Notes under the pieces: model-generated
What the model was told of the DNA's origin: nothing
Databases searched by the model: none
The model's input: only the letters and a program-made list of their open reading frames with translations
NCBI GenBank assembly: GCA_001793095.1
Contig: MGHG01000009.1
Coordinates: 90,391 to 154,390 of the forward strand
DNA: 64,000 nt
Source of the DNA: Candidatus Woesebacteria bacterium RIFCSPLOWO2_01_FULL_39_23
GTDB lineage: Bacteria; Patescibacteriota; Microgenomatia; UBA8517
Direction of reading: 5' to 3'
Made by a program: the position numbers and the translations under genes
Part shown: in pieces, positions 2,949-61,685 of the stretch
How positions within the stretch are numbered: the stretch's first letter is position 1
Layout: each line of letters opens with the position of its first letter

Positions 2949-3043
2949 AACTAGTATTTATTTTAAGCATTCGAGAATACCAGAGGCGTTAGCCTCAGTA
3001 TGAATCGAACGCGCAAAAACAAACTTGTTGAGCCTGAAAGGCG

Positions 3044-3075
3044 AAACTACTCATGTTTTTAGGCATGAGTAGTTT
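3044..3075 (+). terminator. Perfect 12-bp stem hairpin (AAACTACTCATG/CATGAGTAGTTT) downstream of the GT cluster; possible terminator
   Basis: Inverted repeat seen directly in the sequence. It is followed by TATATG rather than a clean U-run. Confidence 0.25.
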
Positions 3076-3498
3076 ATATGTTGACAAAAATCGCCTCTTG
3101 ATTCGGGTTTACTTCGGGATAATAATAGAGTGGAAGAGCGAGAGAGCAGGAGAGTTTAAGTTTTTAAATACCGATACTCTTACACTCTTTTACTCTTCTA
3201 CTCTAATGTCATGATTGAGAAAATCTCGACGCCAGTGTCCGTATCGATGACTTTTGACAGCACTAGTCGACGTGTCCAGCCTAAAATTGTGATTTGGCAT
3301 GGCCGCCTCTACCCTATCGTTAAGACTGGACTTCACCACACTTACAGGCAGGGGCGAACTCTTTTCCATGTTTTCTCCGTTGCCAGCAAGACGTTATTTT
3401 TTAGATTGGTTCTAGATACCGAAACCCTGTATTGGAGGTTGGAAGAGATTTCCGATGGAATGACAAATTAGCGCTTAAACTTATTATAATAAAAAAGT

Positions 3499-6328: not shown

Positions 6329-6925
6329 TTAAAGCTGTGACAAATCAACGCTGTCTCCTAGCTTTACTCCGTATTTATCGGAAAAGCCTGTATTGACTTC
6401 AAGAACATATCTAATAGGTTGCGTAGAAGAATATGTGGGTAGTTTTGAATTTGGAGTATCCAAAGATGGTTTGGGTACATTTTTATCAATATCAGCTATG
6501 ATTCCTTTGTTATCGATCCAAATCATGTCGAGCGGAAAAAGCATTTCTTTCATCCAGAAATGAGGTATGGAGTCTGAAGCGAAAATGAAAATCATTCCTT
6601 CTTCGTCGCTGATCGGTGCATGTCCCGAAAGACCCAATGTTTGTAATGCTGGAGTATCTGCCACTTCAACGGTAAGAGTTTTATCCGCAATTTTGATCTC
6701 CTTTTTCTTAGCTTTTTCTACAACGGTTTTTGTGTCTTCGGATGATATATCTTTACCCGCCTGCAACGCTTGAGGCGTCCCGCTCGCATCGCTACGCGAA
6801 ACGTTTCGGGTGAGAGCATCTGCGGGCAGGTATGTAACATTGGGGTTGCGAAATGCGAATTTATAGAAAACAGCAATCACGATAACGAGAGCTGCAATTG
6901 CTATCGAGATTTTATGTTTAGTCAT
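6329..6925 (-). CDS. DUF192 (COG1430) family protein with N-terminal TM; carries a 33-aa in-frame inserted element
   Basis: The C-terminal HFWMKEMLFPLDMIWID..G..RYVLEV pattern is typical of DUF192. It has an N-terminal hydrophobic helix. Confidence 0.5.
   Translation of the reverse strand: MTKHKISIAIAALVIVIAVFYKFAFRNPNVTYLPADALTRNVSRSDASGTPQALQAGKDISSEDTKTVVEKAKKKEIKIADKTLTVEVADTPALQTLGLSGHAPISDEEGMIFIFASDSIPHFWMKEMLFPLDMIWIDNKGIIADIDKNVPKPSLDTPNSKLPTYSSTQPIRYVLEVNTGFSDKYGVKLGDSVDLSQL
6742..6841. mobile_element. In-frame palindromic inserted element, copy 1 (~100 bp, 33 codons) inside the DUF192 gene
   Basis: About 94% identical to 28041-28140, which lies inside an unrelated gene. It contains nested inverted repeats (CGCCTGCAACGCTTGAGGCG and the perfect palindrome CGAAACGTTTCG). 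Confidence 0.6.
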
Positions 6926-7196: not shown

Positions 7197-7877
7197 TTAA
7201 GGTGTTGGGACTGGCGTTTCACTTGGTTCGGGTGTCGGTGTATTAGTTGGTACCGGGGTCTCAGTGGGAGTAGGCGTTTCACTTGGTTCAACTATTGAGG
7301 TAGGAGCCGGCGTTGTATTGCCTACTCTTAACCCTTTTATTTGGCCGATAACTTGTACTAGAATTTTATGAACTTTTGTCAGATTATCCTTTATTTTTTT
7401 GATATTGTCTTTGACCTCTTTGAAGGCTGTTTTTGGATTTTCGGAAGCAAGAACTTCTTCTAATTTAGTTTTAGTATCTTGTAAAAGAAGTTGTGTGTCA
7501 GCTAATAACTTTTTAGCGTCAGCTATTTGGGTTTTTACAGATGGATCTACCGGAGTTCCAGAAGCTTCAATTTTGGCAACACGGGATTCAATTCTTCCAG
7601 CTAACTTATCAAGCCTTAATATAAGTGCCCCAATTCGTGTCACCATTTGATTGAAAAATGCTCTTACGTGTTCTTCTTTTGCTTGGCTGACACGAGCAGA
7701 GTTAGTAGCGCGTTTTTCTGCATTTTTTTCCTTTATTTCAGAGAGTTTAAGTTGCCTTTCTTCAGTACGCTCCTCTTTTGTTGGTTTAGATGAATCACTT
7801 GAAGTAGTTGCAAATACAAAACTTGGAGTAATTCCCAGAAGAATTATAGTTGCCAGGGCAGTAATAAATTTTGGCAT
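7197..7877 (-). CDS. Secreted coiled-coil protein with a C-terminal Pro/Thr-rich repeat linker
   Basis: It has a signal-peptide-like N-terminus and a long heptad-rich region. The 3' end encodes TPxPTETPVPT repeats from a tandem DNA repeat at about 7200-7300. Confidence 0.45.
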   Translation of the reverse strand: MPKFITALATIILLGITPSFVFATTSSDSSKPTKEERTEERQLKLSEIKEKNAEKRATNSARVSQAKEEHVRAFFNQMVTRIGALILRLDKLAGRIESRVAKIEASGTPVDPSVKTQIADAKKLLADTQLLLQDTKTKLEEVLASENPKTAFKEVKDNIKKIKDNLTKVHKILVQVIGQIKGLRVGNTTPAPTSIVEPSETPTPTETPVPTNTPTPEPSETPVPTP

Positions 7878-14882: not shown

Positions 14883-15770
14883 TTATGATTTGTTAATTAT
14901 CTGACTTGGCGTAATTACAGTGATATTGTTTTCTTGAACATACTTAATAATGTCCTCAAAGTCATCTTTATTAATGTCGTAACGTTCACTGTTGACATCT
15001 TTAATTGGTTCGCCGACCTTATGGAATAAAAGGATCAACCATGCTTTATCCTTTTTAGTTTGGTCGATCCATAACTTTATATCATCAACCTTTGTATTAT
15101 TTTCGATATTTTTAACCTTCATGTTATAGGGATCTAGTGTATCTACAGGATTAAAACCGGGATCGACAGTACGATATCCTTGAAACAGTTTACTGGCTTC
15201 ACTGCGGAGCGTCGGACTGTCTACCCCACACGGTGTAACAAAGACAGTGGCGGATAATTTTTGACTCCAAAGTATATTCCTGGCGGTAGTTAAATCTGTT
15301 TTTATTTGATCTTCGCTTAATGACTGCATGTTGCAATCATGTTTCAAACTATGATTTGCTATTTCCCAGCCGTCGTCTTGGATAATTCTTAACTGTGCCC
15401 AATTCATGTAATCTTTTTGGCCGATTGCAACAACCGGGACTGCAATGGTTCCCTTTAACCCCGCTTCTTTCATTAATGGATAGGCAACCATGTATTGTGA
15501 CAGCCACGCATCGTCAAACCAAAAGGTTATGTAACCATCGGTATTATTTGGTAACGCGGCATAATCTTTAAAAAAAGGATTAGCAGGATTTGTCGTACTG
15601 TAATTTTGCACACTCCTCCAAATAGGAGTATCGGATACTGAACCGAAAACATAACCAATGACAAGCCAAAGGATTATTAATGGTACTACTAACCAAAACA
15701 GGAAAGAATGTTGGCCGTCTTTCGGGCTACCGATTTTTTGAACTAAATTATTTATTTTCTTGTTTTTCAT
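14883..15770 (-). CDS. Polysaccharide deacetylase (CE4, NodB homology) with N-terminal TM
   Basis: FWFDDAW...NHSLKHD motifs. The ORF-track start at 15869 reads into the intergenic repeat element; the Met at 15770 (MKNKKINN) is preferred. Confidence 0.65.
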   Translation of the reverse strand: MKNKKINNLVQKIGSPKDGQHSFLFWLVVPLIILWLVIGYVFGSVSDTPIWRSVQNYSTTNPANPFFKDYAALPNNTDGYITFWFDDAWLSQYMVAYPLMKEAGLKGTIAVPVVAIGQKDYMNWAQLRIIQDDGWEIANHSLKHDCNMQSLSEDQIKTDLTTARNILWSQKLSATVFVTPCGVDSPTLRSEASKLFQGYRTVDPGFNPVDTLDPYNMKVKNIENNTKVDDIKLWIDQTKKDKAWLILLFHKVGEPIKDVNSERYDINKDDFEDIIKYVQENNITVITPSQIINKS

Positions 15771-15960
15771 GACATCCTCCCTGCTCTTACAAGCAGGGTT
15801 TCCTTCTCTAAAGAAGGATGATACTTCGACAAGCTCAGTATCATGCTGAGTATCGTCGAAGCATGACATATCAGGCTCGATTCTCTACGAGTCAGAGACT
15901 CTTAGAGTCGGCGACATCCCCGAGCTAACGCTCGGAGTTTTCTCGAGATCTGCTATAAAC
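15771..15960 (+). repeat. Modular structured intergenic element, copy A (full length, ~190 nt)
   Basis: It shares a 5' hairpin module, a 45-nt palindromic module, a GCTCGATTC linker and a 3' GC-hairpin + TTTTCT + GCTGTTATAA tail with copies at 17504, 38557 (minus) and 61594. The stems co-vary between copies. Confidence 0.65.
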
Positions 15961-17418: not shown

Positions 17419-17503
17419 TATAGGTCATGTATTATACATTATTAGGGATAATTATAAACATAATATGGGATATTAATTAAATATGTACTAACTTAAATGT
17501 TAT

Positions 17504-17661
17504 GACATCCTCCCCGCCTTGAAAGGCGGGGTTTCCTTCAAAGGAGGATGATACTTCGACAGGCTCAGTATCATGCTGAGTATTATCGAAGCATGACATA
17601 TCAGCGTTCAATTCATCCCCGGGCTGAAAGCCCGGAGTTTTCTTGAATGCTGTTATAAGCC
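17504..17661 (+). repeat. Modular structured intergenic element, copy B
   Basis: Same module order as copy A, with compensatory stem changes (CCCCGCC-TTGAAA-GGCGGGG against CCCTGCT-CTTACA-AGCAGGG). Confidence 0.65.
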
Positions 17662-27750: not shown

Positions 27751-28941
27751 TTAAATAAATCTAACCTGCATGCCGTCAAGAGCCTGTAAGGATAGGGAGA
27801 CTTCTTGGCCGGGGAATTTTGAACCGATAGCCCAGATTTTTGCGTGCGTTCTTTCTTCTGCGAAATCAGGCCCAATTTTTTGTGCAACTTCGAATAAACT
27901 TGCCCCTTTTTTCATAACGATAGGGCTATTAAAATTCGGCTCTTCATCGAGGCGAACAAGATAAACATTGATAAAACCAAGAGTTTCCCAAATCCTTTCT
28001 TTTAAATGGTCTAGTCCGTAATCTTTTACTGCACTTATGTATGATATATCATTACCCGCCTGCAACGCTTGATGCGTCCCGCTCGCATCGCTACGCGAAA
28101 CGTCTCGGGCGAGAGCATCCGCGGGTAGGTATGTAACATTATCATTCGGCTGCATAATAATTTCTTTGTTTAACATGTCCGATTTATTTATAACAGAAAT
28201 TGAGGGGGTGTAAACGCGATTTAGTGATAATGCATCGATTAATCTTTCCAAACTTAAGTTTTCATTGATTGTTATTTCCGCGTTTTTTATTCCAAGTTCA
28301 CTAATAACACTTTTAAAAGTTTCTCTCGTGAGGTCTTGTTTAATATTGGAGTGAATGATAAGTCCTCCAGAAACTTTTTTGTCCACTATTATATTTGGTC
28401 GCACAATATCAAGTCTAATTCCGTTTCTTTCGAGTGCAGCCTTAATTCTTTCAATAGCCTCAGGTCTGTCGATGTCCGTCATTAGAATTATCAGGTCAGC
28501 CCCTCGAGCTACCGACAAAACTTCACGTCCTCTTCCCTTCCCTTCTTCTGCACCCTCAATTAGACCAGGAACATCCAAGATTTGGATTCTGGCATTTTTA
28601 TACTCCATCATGCCCGGAATAACTGATACGGTTGTAAAAGAATAGGGAGCCACTCTGCTTCTTGCGTTTGTAAGTCTATTCAGAAGAGTTGATTTTCCGG
28701 CTGACGGTGGACCTATTAATATTACAGTTGCATCTCCCTGGTGCTTTACTGCATAGCCTTGACCTCCTCCACCTCTTGATTTTGAGGATGTTTCTATTTG
28801 TTTATCTTTCAGCCTTGCAATTCTAGCCCTGAGCCTTCCGATATGGTGCTCGGTACCTTTATGGTAAGGTGTGTCGCGTATTTCTTTTTGAATGGCTGAA
28901 ATTTGTTCACCTATATGATCAATATCGGAAAAATCACTCAT
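27751..28941 (-). CDS. DRG/Obg-family GTPase with C-terminal TGS domain; carries a 33-aa in-frame inserted element
   Basis: G1 GPPSAGKSTLLN, DVPGLIEGA and a C-terminal TGS-like ...QVRFI. The N-terminal helix region resembles eukaryotic/archaeal DRG. The ORF-track start at 28998 overlaps tRNA-Arg(TCG); the Met at 28941 is preferred. Confidence 0.65.
   Translation of the reverse strand: MSDFSDIDHIGEQISAIQKEIRDTPYHKGTEHHIGRLRARIARLKDKQIETSSKSRGGGGQGYAVKHQGDATVILIGPPSAGKSTLLNRLTNARSRVAPYSFTTVSVIPGMMEYKNARIQILDVPGLIEGAEEGKGRGREVLSVARGADLIILMTDIDRPEAIERIKAALERNGIRLDIVRPNIIVDKKVSGGLIIHSNIKQDLTRETFKSVISELGIKNAEITINENLSLERLIDALSLNRVYTPSISVINKSDMLNKEIIMQPNDNVTYLPADALARDVSRSDASGTHQALQAGNDISYISAVKDYGLDHLKERIWETLGFINVYLVRLDEEPNFNSPIVMKKGASLFEVAQKIGPDFAEERTHAKIWAIGSKFPGQEVSLSLQALDGMQVRFI
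28041..28140. mobile_element. In-frame palindromic inserted element, copy 2 (~100 bp, 33 codons) inside the DRG GTPase gene
   Basis: About 94% identical to 6742-6841. It encodes DNVTYLPADALARDVSRSDASGTHQALQAGNDIS between conserved GTPase and TGS segments. Confidence 0.6.
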
Positions 28942-33446: not shown

Positions 33447-33517
33447 AGCGGGTAGGGGGAATCGAACCCCCATAAAGAGATTGGAAATCTCTTGTTCTAC
33501 CATTGAACCATACCCGC
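33447..33517 (-). tRNA. tRNA-Gly (anticodon TCC)
   Basis: Cloverleaf built by hand: GCGGGTA acceptor, AGAGA/TCTCT anticodon stem, TTTCCAA loop, U73. Confidence 0.75.
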
Positions 33518-33538: not shown

Positions 33539-33670
33539 GCCAAGCTCCGCTTACAGCGCGTAGCGATGCCAAGCTTTGCTTACAGCGCGTAGCGATGCCA
33601 AGCTTTGCTTACAGCGCGTAGCGATGCCAAGCTTTGCTTACAGCGCGTAGCGATGCCAAGCTCCGCTTAC
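33539..33670. repeat. Tandem minisatellite, 29-bp unit x ~4.5 (GCCAAGCTYYGCTTACAGCGCGTAGCGAT)
   Basis: Directly adjacent repeats with no spacers. It sits between tRNA-Gly(TCC) and a duplicated 20-nt copy of the tRNA 5' end (33668-33687). Confidence 0.8.
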
Positions 33671-33816
33671 CATTGAACCATACCCGCGCGTCGTAACACG
33701 ACGCACTAATCGTATCACAATGCCTTTGCGTAGGATACTAACGCTAGTCGGTTACTCCTTTCAATCCTTCTGCTTTGCTCAGGATTGGTTTCTAACAATC
33801 AAATAATATGTTTTTG

Positions 33817-38556: not shown

Positions 38557-38667
38557 GGTTATAACAGCGTTCAAGAAAACTCCGCTCTTCAGGGCGGAGA
38601 TGAATTGAACTCTGATATATCGTCCTCCTTAGAGAAACCCCGCCCTTGAGGGCGGGGAGGACGTCAT
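38557..38667 (-). repeat. Modular structured intergenic element, copy D (minus orientation, lacks the central palindromic module)
   Basis: The reverse complement reads GACGTCCTCCCCGCCCTCAAGGGCGGGGTTTCTCTAAGGAGGACG ATATATCAG AGTTCAATTCATCTCCGCCCTGAAGAGCGGAGTTTCTTGAACGCTGTTATAACC. This aligns module-by-module with copy B. Confidence 0.6.
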
Positions 38668-61550: not shown

Positions 61551-61593
61551 TTCTTAATAATAATAGTTTAATAGACTATTGACAAGAAGATAT

Positions 61594-61685
61594 GACATAC
61601 TCGCCTCGCCGTGGCTTGAGCGAAGCGGGTCAGGGCTCGATTCATCCCCGAGCGTAAGCTCGGGGTTTTCTCGAAACTGCTATAC
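61594..61685 (+). repeat. Modular structured intergenic element, copy C (short form)
   Basis: Shares TATGACAT 5' context, a 5' hairpin (CGCCTCGCC...GCGAAGCGG), the GCTCGATTCATCC linker and the CCCGAGC-GTAA-GCTCGGG TTTTCTCGAAA CTGCTATAC tail. It ends 8 nt before the ATG of the next gene. Confidence 0.6.

Follow-up and report, generated by a model that had tools for sequence, protein, structure and literature searches.

Hairpin-rich intergenic repeats of a Woesebacteria genome as probable miniature elements of the IS200/IS605 family

The closest described systems to the repeats discussed here are the insertion sequences (ISs) of the IS200/IS605 family, such as IS608 of Helicobacter pylori and ISDra2, and the palindrome-associated transposable elements (PATEs) of haloarchaea. 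IS608 inserts 3' of the tetranucleotide TTAC, with its left cleavage site (C_L) 19 nt 5' of the left hairpin and its right cleavage site (C_R, TCAA) 10 nt 3' of the right hairpin (PMC3201880). Its guides, AAAG for C_L (TTAC) and GAAT for C_R (TCAA), stand directly 5' of the hairpins (PMC3201880, PMC5934647), and the pairing rule is C1-G2, C2-G1 and C4-G4, where C and G are positions of the cleavage site and the guide (PMC5934647). A paper on IS1341-type transposases describes PATEs, in which a left end is joined to a right end and no transposase gene is present, and reports that they can be transcribed; according to the same paper the HgcC RNA contains the "RE-like tetraloop" (RE, right end) of IS200/IS605 right ends (PMC4615843). 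This paper discusses a family of hairpin-rich intergenic repeats found in 64,000 nucleotides of Candidatus Woesebacteria bacterium RIFCSPLOWO2_01_FULL_39_23 (contig MGHG01000009.1, positions 90,391 to 154,390; hereafter the window, meaning this whole stretch), a bacterium of the candidate phyla radiation (CPR). The copies are, in all likelihood, non-autonomous elements of the IS200/IS605 family (PATEs, or miniature inverted-repeat transposable elements, MITEs) in which a left end is fused to a right end and the transposase gene tnpA is deleted; the parent type is an IS200-group IS.

Anatomy of the repeats and their transposase-bearing relatives

Four copies, designated A to D, can be read directly in the window at the sites which an earlier, sequence-only reading had named. 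In pattern searches of the window the tail pattern GTTTTCTYGARN{1,3}CTGYTATA matches exactly these four sites (0 of 100 shuffles), the 5' motif ATGACRTCCTCCCYGC is exact in copies A, B and D and has 3 mismatches in copy C, and the linker pattern is matched in copies B and D. A covariance model of related copies recovers the four sites together with a degenerate fifth at 2961-3079. The repeat is therefore real, because the four sites are confirmed, the patterns are far above chance and the covariance model recovers them. The stem sequences listed earlier are also correct and able to pair, and the long palindrome (44-45 nt) is indeed confined to copies A and B, between which the surrounding 65-nt stretch is 94% identical.

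Other parts of the earlier description had to be changed. The exact edges of the copies were slightly off, and the corrected limits of the elements proper are collected in Table 1. The strand had to be reversed, since the element runs from its left end to its right end on the strand opposite to the one first read; this polarity is also the direction of tnpA in the autonomous relatives and the direction of the HgcC match. The 5' nested-hairpin module which had been assigned to all copies is absent from copy C, in which "ATGACATAC..." is the element-internal TATGTCAT with a different hairpin, and no right-end hairpin is present there. On its own strand each copy has TTAT as its 5' neighbour, except that the target position of copy C reads GTAT. 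In the probable fifth copy, AGCATTCGAGAATAC-hairpin-TATGAATCGAACGC resembles the left end and the second hairpin is divergent and AT-rich; the stems of this copy have decayed towards AT.

On the top strand the order of parts is TTAT (which is both target and left cleavage site and remains part of the flank), AACAGCATTCAAG, the left guide AAAA, a GC hairpin (IP_L), GATGAATTGAACGCTG and then the variable internal modules; the segments around IP_L pair, so the left end forms one long interrupted hairpin. The right end consists of ATGTCATCCTCC, a small hairpin, the right guide GAAA, a GC hairpin of 8 bp whose loop is UUYA (IP_R) and AGGAYG, followed by the right cleavage site TCAT, with which the element terminates (...GGAGGAYG-TCAT).

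The guides and cleavage sites of the element, AAAA with TTAT on the left and GAAA with TCAT on the right, give Watson-Crick pairs at all three positions of the IS608 rule at both ends; simple parallel or antiparallel guide pairing was considered as well and was dropped for the pairs published for IS608. C_R lies 10 nt 3' of the foot of the right hairpin (6-nt linker plus TCAT) in the MITE and in 9 autonomous relatives, while C_L lies 16-17 nt 5' of the foot of the left hairpin, compared with 19 in IS608. Moreover, guide and target change together, being AAAA/TTAT in the MITE, AAAT/TTAA in the loci L254, L255 and L261, and AAAC/TTAG in L041. Judged from sequence comparison, this guide/target covariation is the strongest evidence that the elements would be substrates of the transposase TnpA.

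A genome-collection scan with a 16-mer right-end pattern gave mostly chance matches in GC-rich genomes, and only the loci from CPR bacteria and DPANN archaea were informative; in these the right-end motif sits in a hairpin, followed by AGGAYGTCAT. In L059 (Zambryskibacteria) the right end directly follows an open reading frame (ORF) of 143 aa encoding a Y1_Tnp protein (Pfam E 2.7e-29), which is homologous to the TnpA structures of ISHp608 and ISDra2, and L061 (Berkelbacteria) has the same arrangement of tnpA and then right end. The right end GAAA, CCCCGC...GCGGGG, AGGAYG-TCAT stands directly 3' of tnpA in L059, L061 and L041 (Aenigmatarchaeota). Six more tnpA loci, fetched through protein homologues (L242, L248, L254, L255, L261 and L263), have the right-end design common to the tnpA loci, namely GAAA, a stem of 8 bp with the loop UUYA, a linker of 6 nt and TCAT; homologous ends are found with Y1 HUH tnpA genes in L041, L059, L061, L242-L253 and L254-L263. 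The left end matches too in L041, L254, L255 and L261 (..CAAGAAAY, hairpin, GATGAATTG.., with the same long-range helix), and in L041 both the left end (TCAAGAAAC, hairpin, GATGAATTGATCGC) and the right end are like those of the window element. In addition, a form of about 210 nt in L001 (Woesebacteria) still holds the last tnpA codons, ATTCTCATGA, and is a tnpA-deleted intermediate towards the miniature element. The term "MITE-like", which the sequence-only reading had offered among several possibilities, is supported; the ends are homologous to those of tnpA-bearing elements and no transposase gene lies inside.

Two observations on these relatives may be recorded. In L041, tnpA is seemingly interrupted near its 5' end, at 7321-7365, by a stretch of about 45 nt with two small hairpins (GAGAAAACTGATGTTTTCTC and AGAAAACCTTTGGTTTTCT) which adds a stop codon and may be another tiny inserted palindrome. 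In L242-L251, two CPR IS200 lineages (TnpA P0159 and P0134) each stand directly after a terminator-like hairpin and T-run at several unrelated loci, which suggests terminator-targeted insertion for these ISs.

The tnpA of P0159 occurs in several unrelated contexts (L242-L247), and therefore these are mobile ISs. This bears on the explanation that the repeats are repetitive extragenic palindromic (REP) sequences or their paired forms (REPINs), kept by a domesticated REP-associated tyrosine transposase (RAYT), and not IS-derived MITEs. In favour of it, the repeats are extragenic palindromes rich in GC within a genome rich in AT, the RAYTs belong to the relatives of IS200/IS605 TnpA (PMC2817692), and PATEs have been equated with bacterial REPINs (PMC4615843). 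However, the left-end and right-end hairpin domains differ from each other and follow in direct order, the cleavage sites are of the IS type and the target is constant; related tnpA genes which are bounded by the same ends and occupy several unrelated sites, as P0159 does, behave as ISs and not as a single-copy RAYT, so that a REP/REPIN origin is very unlikely. A further explanation sees in the repeats the remnants of TnpB guide RNAs (omega or reRNA scaffolds, from IS605/IS1341 right ends) with the flank as guide. HgcC has been tied to the sense-overlapping transcripts of IS1341-type tnpB (PMC4615843), and the right end stops exactly at the flank; nevertheless, every autonomous relative recovered carries tnpA alone, as in the IS200 group, the gene past the right end is unrelated, and no tnpB relative is seen beside any copy, so that this explanation is extremely improbable.

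If the elements are non-autonomous members of the IS200/IS605 family, by analogy with IS608 and ISDra2 a Y1 HUH transposase (TnpA) supplied in trans would bind both hairpins on single-stranded DNA and would locate the cleavage sites through base pairing with the guides. The top strand would then be excised as a circle and would enter the DNA again 3' of a different TTAT, with no duplication of the target ("peel and paste"), and the same chemistry may have mobilised the copies in trans in this Woesebacteria genome. TnpA is expected to recognise the shape of a hairpin and not its stem sequence. The covariation of the stems could be understood because the transposase would read hairpin shape, and lineages which keep the pairing would keep transposing.

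Helix covariation and the resemblance to HgcC

In a set of 48 canonical related copies four helices are supported, namely the long-range left-end helix, the left hairpin, the right-end outer helix including the terminal CAT, and the right hairpin. Paired cells amount to 95.5%, against 83.9% in shuffles and about 40% when the partners are slid; double changes are found at 17 pairs, with 193 double-change cells against 53.5 in shuffles, and covariation is strong in all four helices. DNA folding gives z = -6.4 to -6.9, with both strands folding equally well. Among the non-Watson-Crick cells, G·T and A·C number 31 and 19, which is not significant (p = 0.12), and the assignment of a strand by these counts was given up. 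As neither this ratio nor the folding separates the strands, there is no sign of selection on RNA hairpins over DNA hairpins. The earlier conclusion that covariation argues for selection on structure is supported as far as a recombination substrate is concerned, but not at the RNA level.

At gathering thresholds Rfam finds only tRNAs in the window. A permissive scan matched copy B to the whole model of RF00062, HgcC, at 33.2 bits (E 3e-6), on the strand opposite to that first read, and 5 of the 10 metagenome loci searched gave HgcC matches of 26.9-30.4 bits, the gathering score of 50 not being reached; the matches always run from left to right. The sequence-only reading had named a match to a known Rfam family or REP element as a finding that would refute it, and in spirit this has come about: the repeats belong to the known PATE/MITE class of IS200/IS605, and their one resemblance in Rfam, to HgcC, at 27-33 bits and below the threshold, is to a family already connected with IS200/IS605 right ends (PMC4615843).

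The HgcC match is one point in favour of another explanation, in which the copies are structured small-RNA genes under selection for RNA structure, the bacterial counterpart of HgcC, whose left-to-right transcript could act as a TnpA decoy or as a regulator; such genes would be compatible with a transposon origin. The full-length model matches canonical copies in one orientation only, covariation is strong, and in Halobacterium the PATE-derived RNA VNG_R0052 has a small-RNA sequencing signal and altered growth when over-expressed (PMC4615843). On the other hand, the HgcC scores are under the gathering threshold, the base-pair counts and the folding are indifferent to the strand as described above, the orientation to neighbouring genes is random, and many copies are truncated or have large inserts. 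In a scan of copies A and B no sigma-70-type consensus promoter, the consensus being judged by eye, was seen inside the canonical element, and the one promoter match inside an element, TTGAAC...GATAAT of copy B, exists only because of the inserted palindrome. Small-RNA genes are for these reasons an unlikely explanation. A wider proposal, also rather doubtful, is that the family forms the bacterial (CPR) side of a lineage also found in DPANN and other archaea, whose archaeal members are those listed as HgcC RNAs, that HgcC RNAs are transcribed PATEs, and that the CPR copies are likewise expressed structured RNAs with a function for the host or the transposon. If this were true, the function could be, for example, to titrate TnpA or, the genomes being very compact, to terminate transcription and insulate genes, and one IS200 lineage would have spread across domains in groundwater consortia.

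Target site, spread and gene context

A scan of metagenomes with the left-end motif gave at least 120 matches in at least 118 loci, largely from groundwater samples, and a right end lies 49-197 nt downstream in about 90 among the matches listed, with modes at 108 and 111 nt. No tnpA-like match was obtained in the fetched metagenome loci by tblastn. In longer copies hairpin modules occur at a small number of set places: within the first hairpin's loop, following GGGGATGA, and on one or the other side of the internal TGTCAT. The two places next to TGTCAT correspond to the interior between left-end and right-end cores, where tnpA is situated in the autonomous element, and the 44-nt palindrome of copies A and B is one such internal module. 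Copies at least 95% identical are found in unrelated flanks, including one cluster of six, which indicates recent spread. L135 (243-354) and L219 (about 871-921) have apparently orthologous flanks around a 111-nt form and a 51-nt form, respectively; left and right hairpins are merged in the short form, which suggests that it arose by deletion between the two similar hairpins. L151 and L184 (also L122) contain near-identical 196-nt copies with the same left flank and different right flanks, a pattern which could be due to recombination between copies or to assembly chimeras.

Across 85 unique copies the conserved block starts abruptly and ends abruptly after GTCAT, without duplication of flanking bases. 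The base before TATA is T in 83 of the 85, where only this first T is an independent observation because TATA was fixed by the search pattern, and the flanks farther out look random. A terminator-type target for the MITE copies was considered and rejected, as the composition of the left flank has no T-run, unlike the P0159/P0134 ISs.

Two insertions in the window affect gene ends. Copy A lies between two minus-strand genes and its "tail", as named on the strand first read, is inside the 3' end of a minus-strand GT39 gene, the last 6 codons of which are replaced by 9 element-encoded codons, while the ATG of the following deacetylase gene is re-created (TTAT-G to TCAT-G). When 15769-15954 is removed in silico and TTAT is kept, the end of the GT39 protein changes from ...KVYSRSRENSER to ...FFKVYEKQENK, which restores a C-terminal YEK, and YE[KR] occurs within the last nine residues of 24 of the 52 full-length GT39 homologues; the ATG of the next gene is kept on excision because TTAT-G and TCAT-G both give ATG. 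If TTAT is removed as well, the GT39 ORF fuses by read-through to the next gene. At 15769-15772 the terminal CAT and the flanking G make up the deacetylase ATG, and GGAGGA of the element, 5 nt upstream, is Shine-Dalgarno-like. In copy D (38664-38667) the complement of TCAT provides the TGA stop of a 109-aa ORF, and the stop position of this neighbouring ORF is unchanged on excision (ATAA compared with ATGA).

The sequence-only reading had stated that each copy abuts a downstream co-oriented gene, and this is correct for copies B, C and D (56, 8 and about 176 nt beyond the tail) but not for copy A. In favour of the idea that the repeats are mobile promoters which fire outward, or 5' leaders with a cis-regulatory role for the gene beyond the "tail", are this position of copies B, C and D and an outward-facing TTGAAY hexamer about 10 nt from the left terminus. 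For about 88 elements, however, the nearest long ORF on the left-end side presents its end in 31 cases and its start in 27, and that on the right-end side its start in 32 and its end in 26. Adjacency to gene starts is therefore not a property of the family, the orientation of flanking genes being about equal both ways, and copy A stands between co-directional genes. Promoter-like matches in the region number 8, against 9.3 in shuffles, and the invariant bases of the "tail" are explained as left guide, spacer and target of a TnpA substrate, so that a promoter or leader function is highly improbable. The terminator-like hairpins noticed on the strand first read are indeed present: both hairpins of copies A and B are predicted to match the terminator consensus on the plus strand, with a T-rich run after each, and these T-runs are the complements of the invariant guide regions.

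Several points weigh against the assignment to non-autonomous IS200/IS605 elements. No real empty site was obtained, as BLAST with joined flanks against all fetched loci gave only sites occupied by the short form; look-ups of the flanking proteins found contigs which share the flanking genes at the protein level. Precise insertion at copy A rests on reconstruction, because there is no empty site and the nearest GT39 homologues are at most 49% identical. The window copies are substantially unlike each other, differing in hairpin stems and internal modules, and all four may be old, immobile insertions. tblastn gave no tnpA in the 64-kb window, the window being the scope of this search. The closest autonomous relatives by left end are annotated mainly in DPANN archaea, whereas the window is bacterial and no CPR parent was identified. 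Finally, the P0159/P0134 lineage, which shares the right end, has no obvious TC?T target, which its left guide GAAA would predict.

Table 1. Parts of the repeat copies in the window, with strand as element polarity
Feature	Position	Strand	Remarks
Copy A, element proper, 186 nt	15769..15954	-	Left-end domain, 32-nt extra hairpin module, 44-nt palindrome, right-end domain; terminal ...GGGAGGATGTCAT at 15769
Copy A, TTAT target / left cleavage site (C_L), kept 5' of element	15955..15958	-	
Copy A, left-end hairpin (hp1, IP_L)	15919..15936	-	Guide AAAA before it
Copy A, extra internal hairpin module	15883..15914	-	Inserted after GGGGATG; other family members have different modules at the same point
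Copy A, 44-nt palindromic internal module	15821..15864	.	Between left-end and right-end cores; similar module in L126
Copy A, right-end hairpin (hp2, IP_R)	15779..15798	-	Guide GAAA before, AGGATG-TCAT after
Copy B, element proper, 153 nt	17502..17654	-	Canonical element plus 44-nt palindrome; HgcC 33.2 bits on this strand
Copy B, TTAT target site	17655..17658	-	
Copy B, left-end hairpin (hp1)	17618..17636	-	
Copy B, 44-nt palindromic internal module	17551..17594	.	
Copy B, right-end hairpin (hp2)	17512..17531	-	UUUCAA loop
Copy D, canonical element, 105 nt	38563..38667	+	Left-end and right-end domains; best family-model match, 117 bits
Copy D, TTAT target site	38559..38562	+	
Copy D, left-end hairpin (hp1)	38581..38599	+	
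Copy D, right-end hairpin (hp2)	38638..38657	+	
Copy C, truncated derivative, 90 nt	61592..61681	-	Canonical left-end domain, then different GC hairpin, stops at internal TATGTCAT; 45.9 bits
Fifth copy, probable, decayed	2961..3079	+	Covariance model only, 31.9 bits, E 3e-5

Other features of the window are as follows. Between a tRNA gene (33447-33517) and a partial duplicate of the end of that tRNA (CCATTGAACCATACCCGC; 33662-33696), a 29-nt unit, GCCAAGCTTTGCTTACAGCGCGTAGCGAT, is repeated in tandem about five times over 33539-33683; the sub-motif CAAGCTTTGCTTA of this unit is also an internal module just 5' of TATGTCAT in the metagenome MITEs of L122, L134, L151 and L176. A second GC-rich repeat of 100 nt, unrelated in sequence to the MITE element, is present at 6742-6841 and 28041-28140 (94% identical) and is self-complementary inside (ACCCGCCTGC...GCGGGCAGGT). 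Thirteen tRNA genes are scattered singly through the window (1-64000), and the GC skew changes sign at about 44-52 kb, where a replication origin or terminus may lie. A replication-strand bias of the copies was considered and was uninformative, two of the four fitting and two not.

Significance and comparison with known systems

What is new here is modest: an unannotated family abundant in CPR and groundwater genomes, its nearness to ISs of DPANN archaea, the natural variation of guide and target, and the clear link in architecture to HgcC; a literature search on IS200 MITEs in Patescibacteria gave nothing specific. The assignment gives a concrete annotation to four or five intergenic repeats of this Woesebacteria genome and to at least 100 groundwater-metagenome sites which would otherwise invite readings as RNA genes or riboswitches. 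On this view the very small genomes of CPR bacteria would be actively colonised by single-strand transposons of the IS200 type and by miniature elements derived from them. Gene ends are altered by the insertions: the GT39 protein has a new C-terminus, and element ends re-create the stop of the 109-aa ORF and the start of the deacetylase gene. In addition, the targets TTAT, TTAA and TTAG are a natural retargeting of the kind engineered in IS608, and the results support the notion that HgcC is the fused left and right end of such elements.

HgcC (RF00062) is known as a high-GC RNA of AT-rich archaea (Methanocaldococcus, Archaeoglobus), whereas the host here is bacterial. Both have the same order of parts, namely a 5' GC hairpin, GAUGA..UGAAC, a variable middle, a small hairpin, a CCCCGC hairpin with a UUNA loop and GAGGAKGUCA, and L263 has a right end that is almost the same as the 3' end of the HgcC consensus. 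They differ in that HgcC is catalogued as an RNA gene and not as a transposon end, while the window element is known from its sequence alone. With REPs and REPINs the family has in common abundant, extragenic GC-rich palindromes which are presumably handled by a Y1 HUH enzyme; however, a REPIN consists of two inverted copies of one short REP with a single-copy RAYT, while in the window family the two end domains are unlike each other and stand in direct order, the target is constant and the tnpA-bearing relatives are multi-copy.

The likeness is closest to IS608, ISDra2 and the haloarchaeal PATEs, in which, too, each end has a subterminal imperfect hairpin, terminal inverted repeats are absent and the target is not duplicated. 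Shared with the IS200/IS605 family are likewise a constant tetranucleotide, which stays in the left flank and 3' of which insertion takes place, guides 5' of the hairpins and C_R at 10 nt; the ends are common to elements encoding a Y1 HUH TnpA, and left and right ends are fused as in PATEs. The target is TTAC in IS608, TTGAT in ISDra2 and TTAT here, and C_L is at 16-17 nt instead of the 19 nt of IS608. Furthermore, the family departs from the IS200/IS605 paradigm in that its left hairpin lies within a longer helix which co-varies, that variable hairpin modules occupy fixed internal points, and that it is hosted by CPR bacteria (here Ca. Woesebacteria) and has close relatives among the elements of DPANN archaea.

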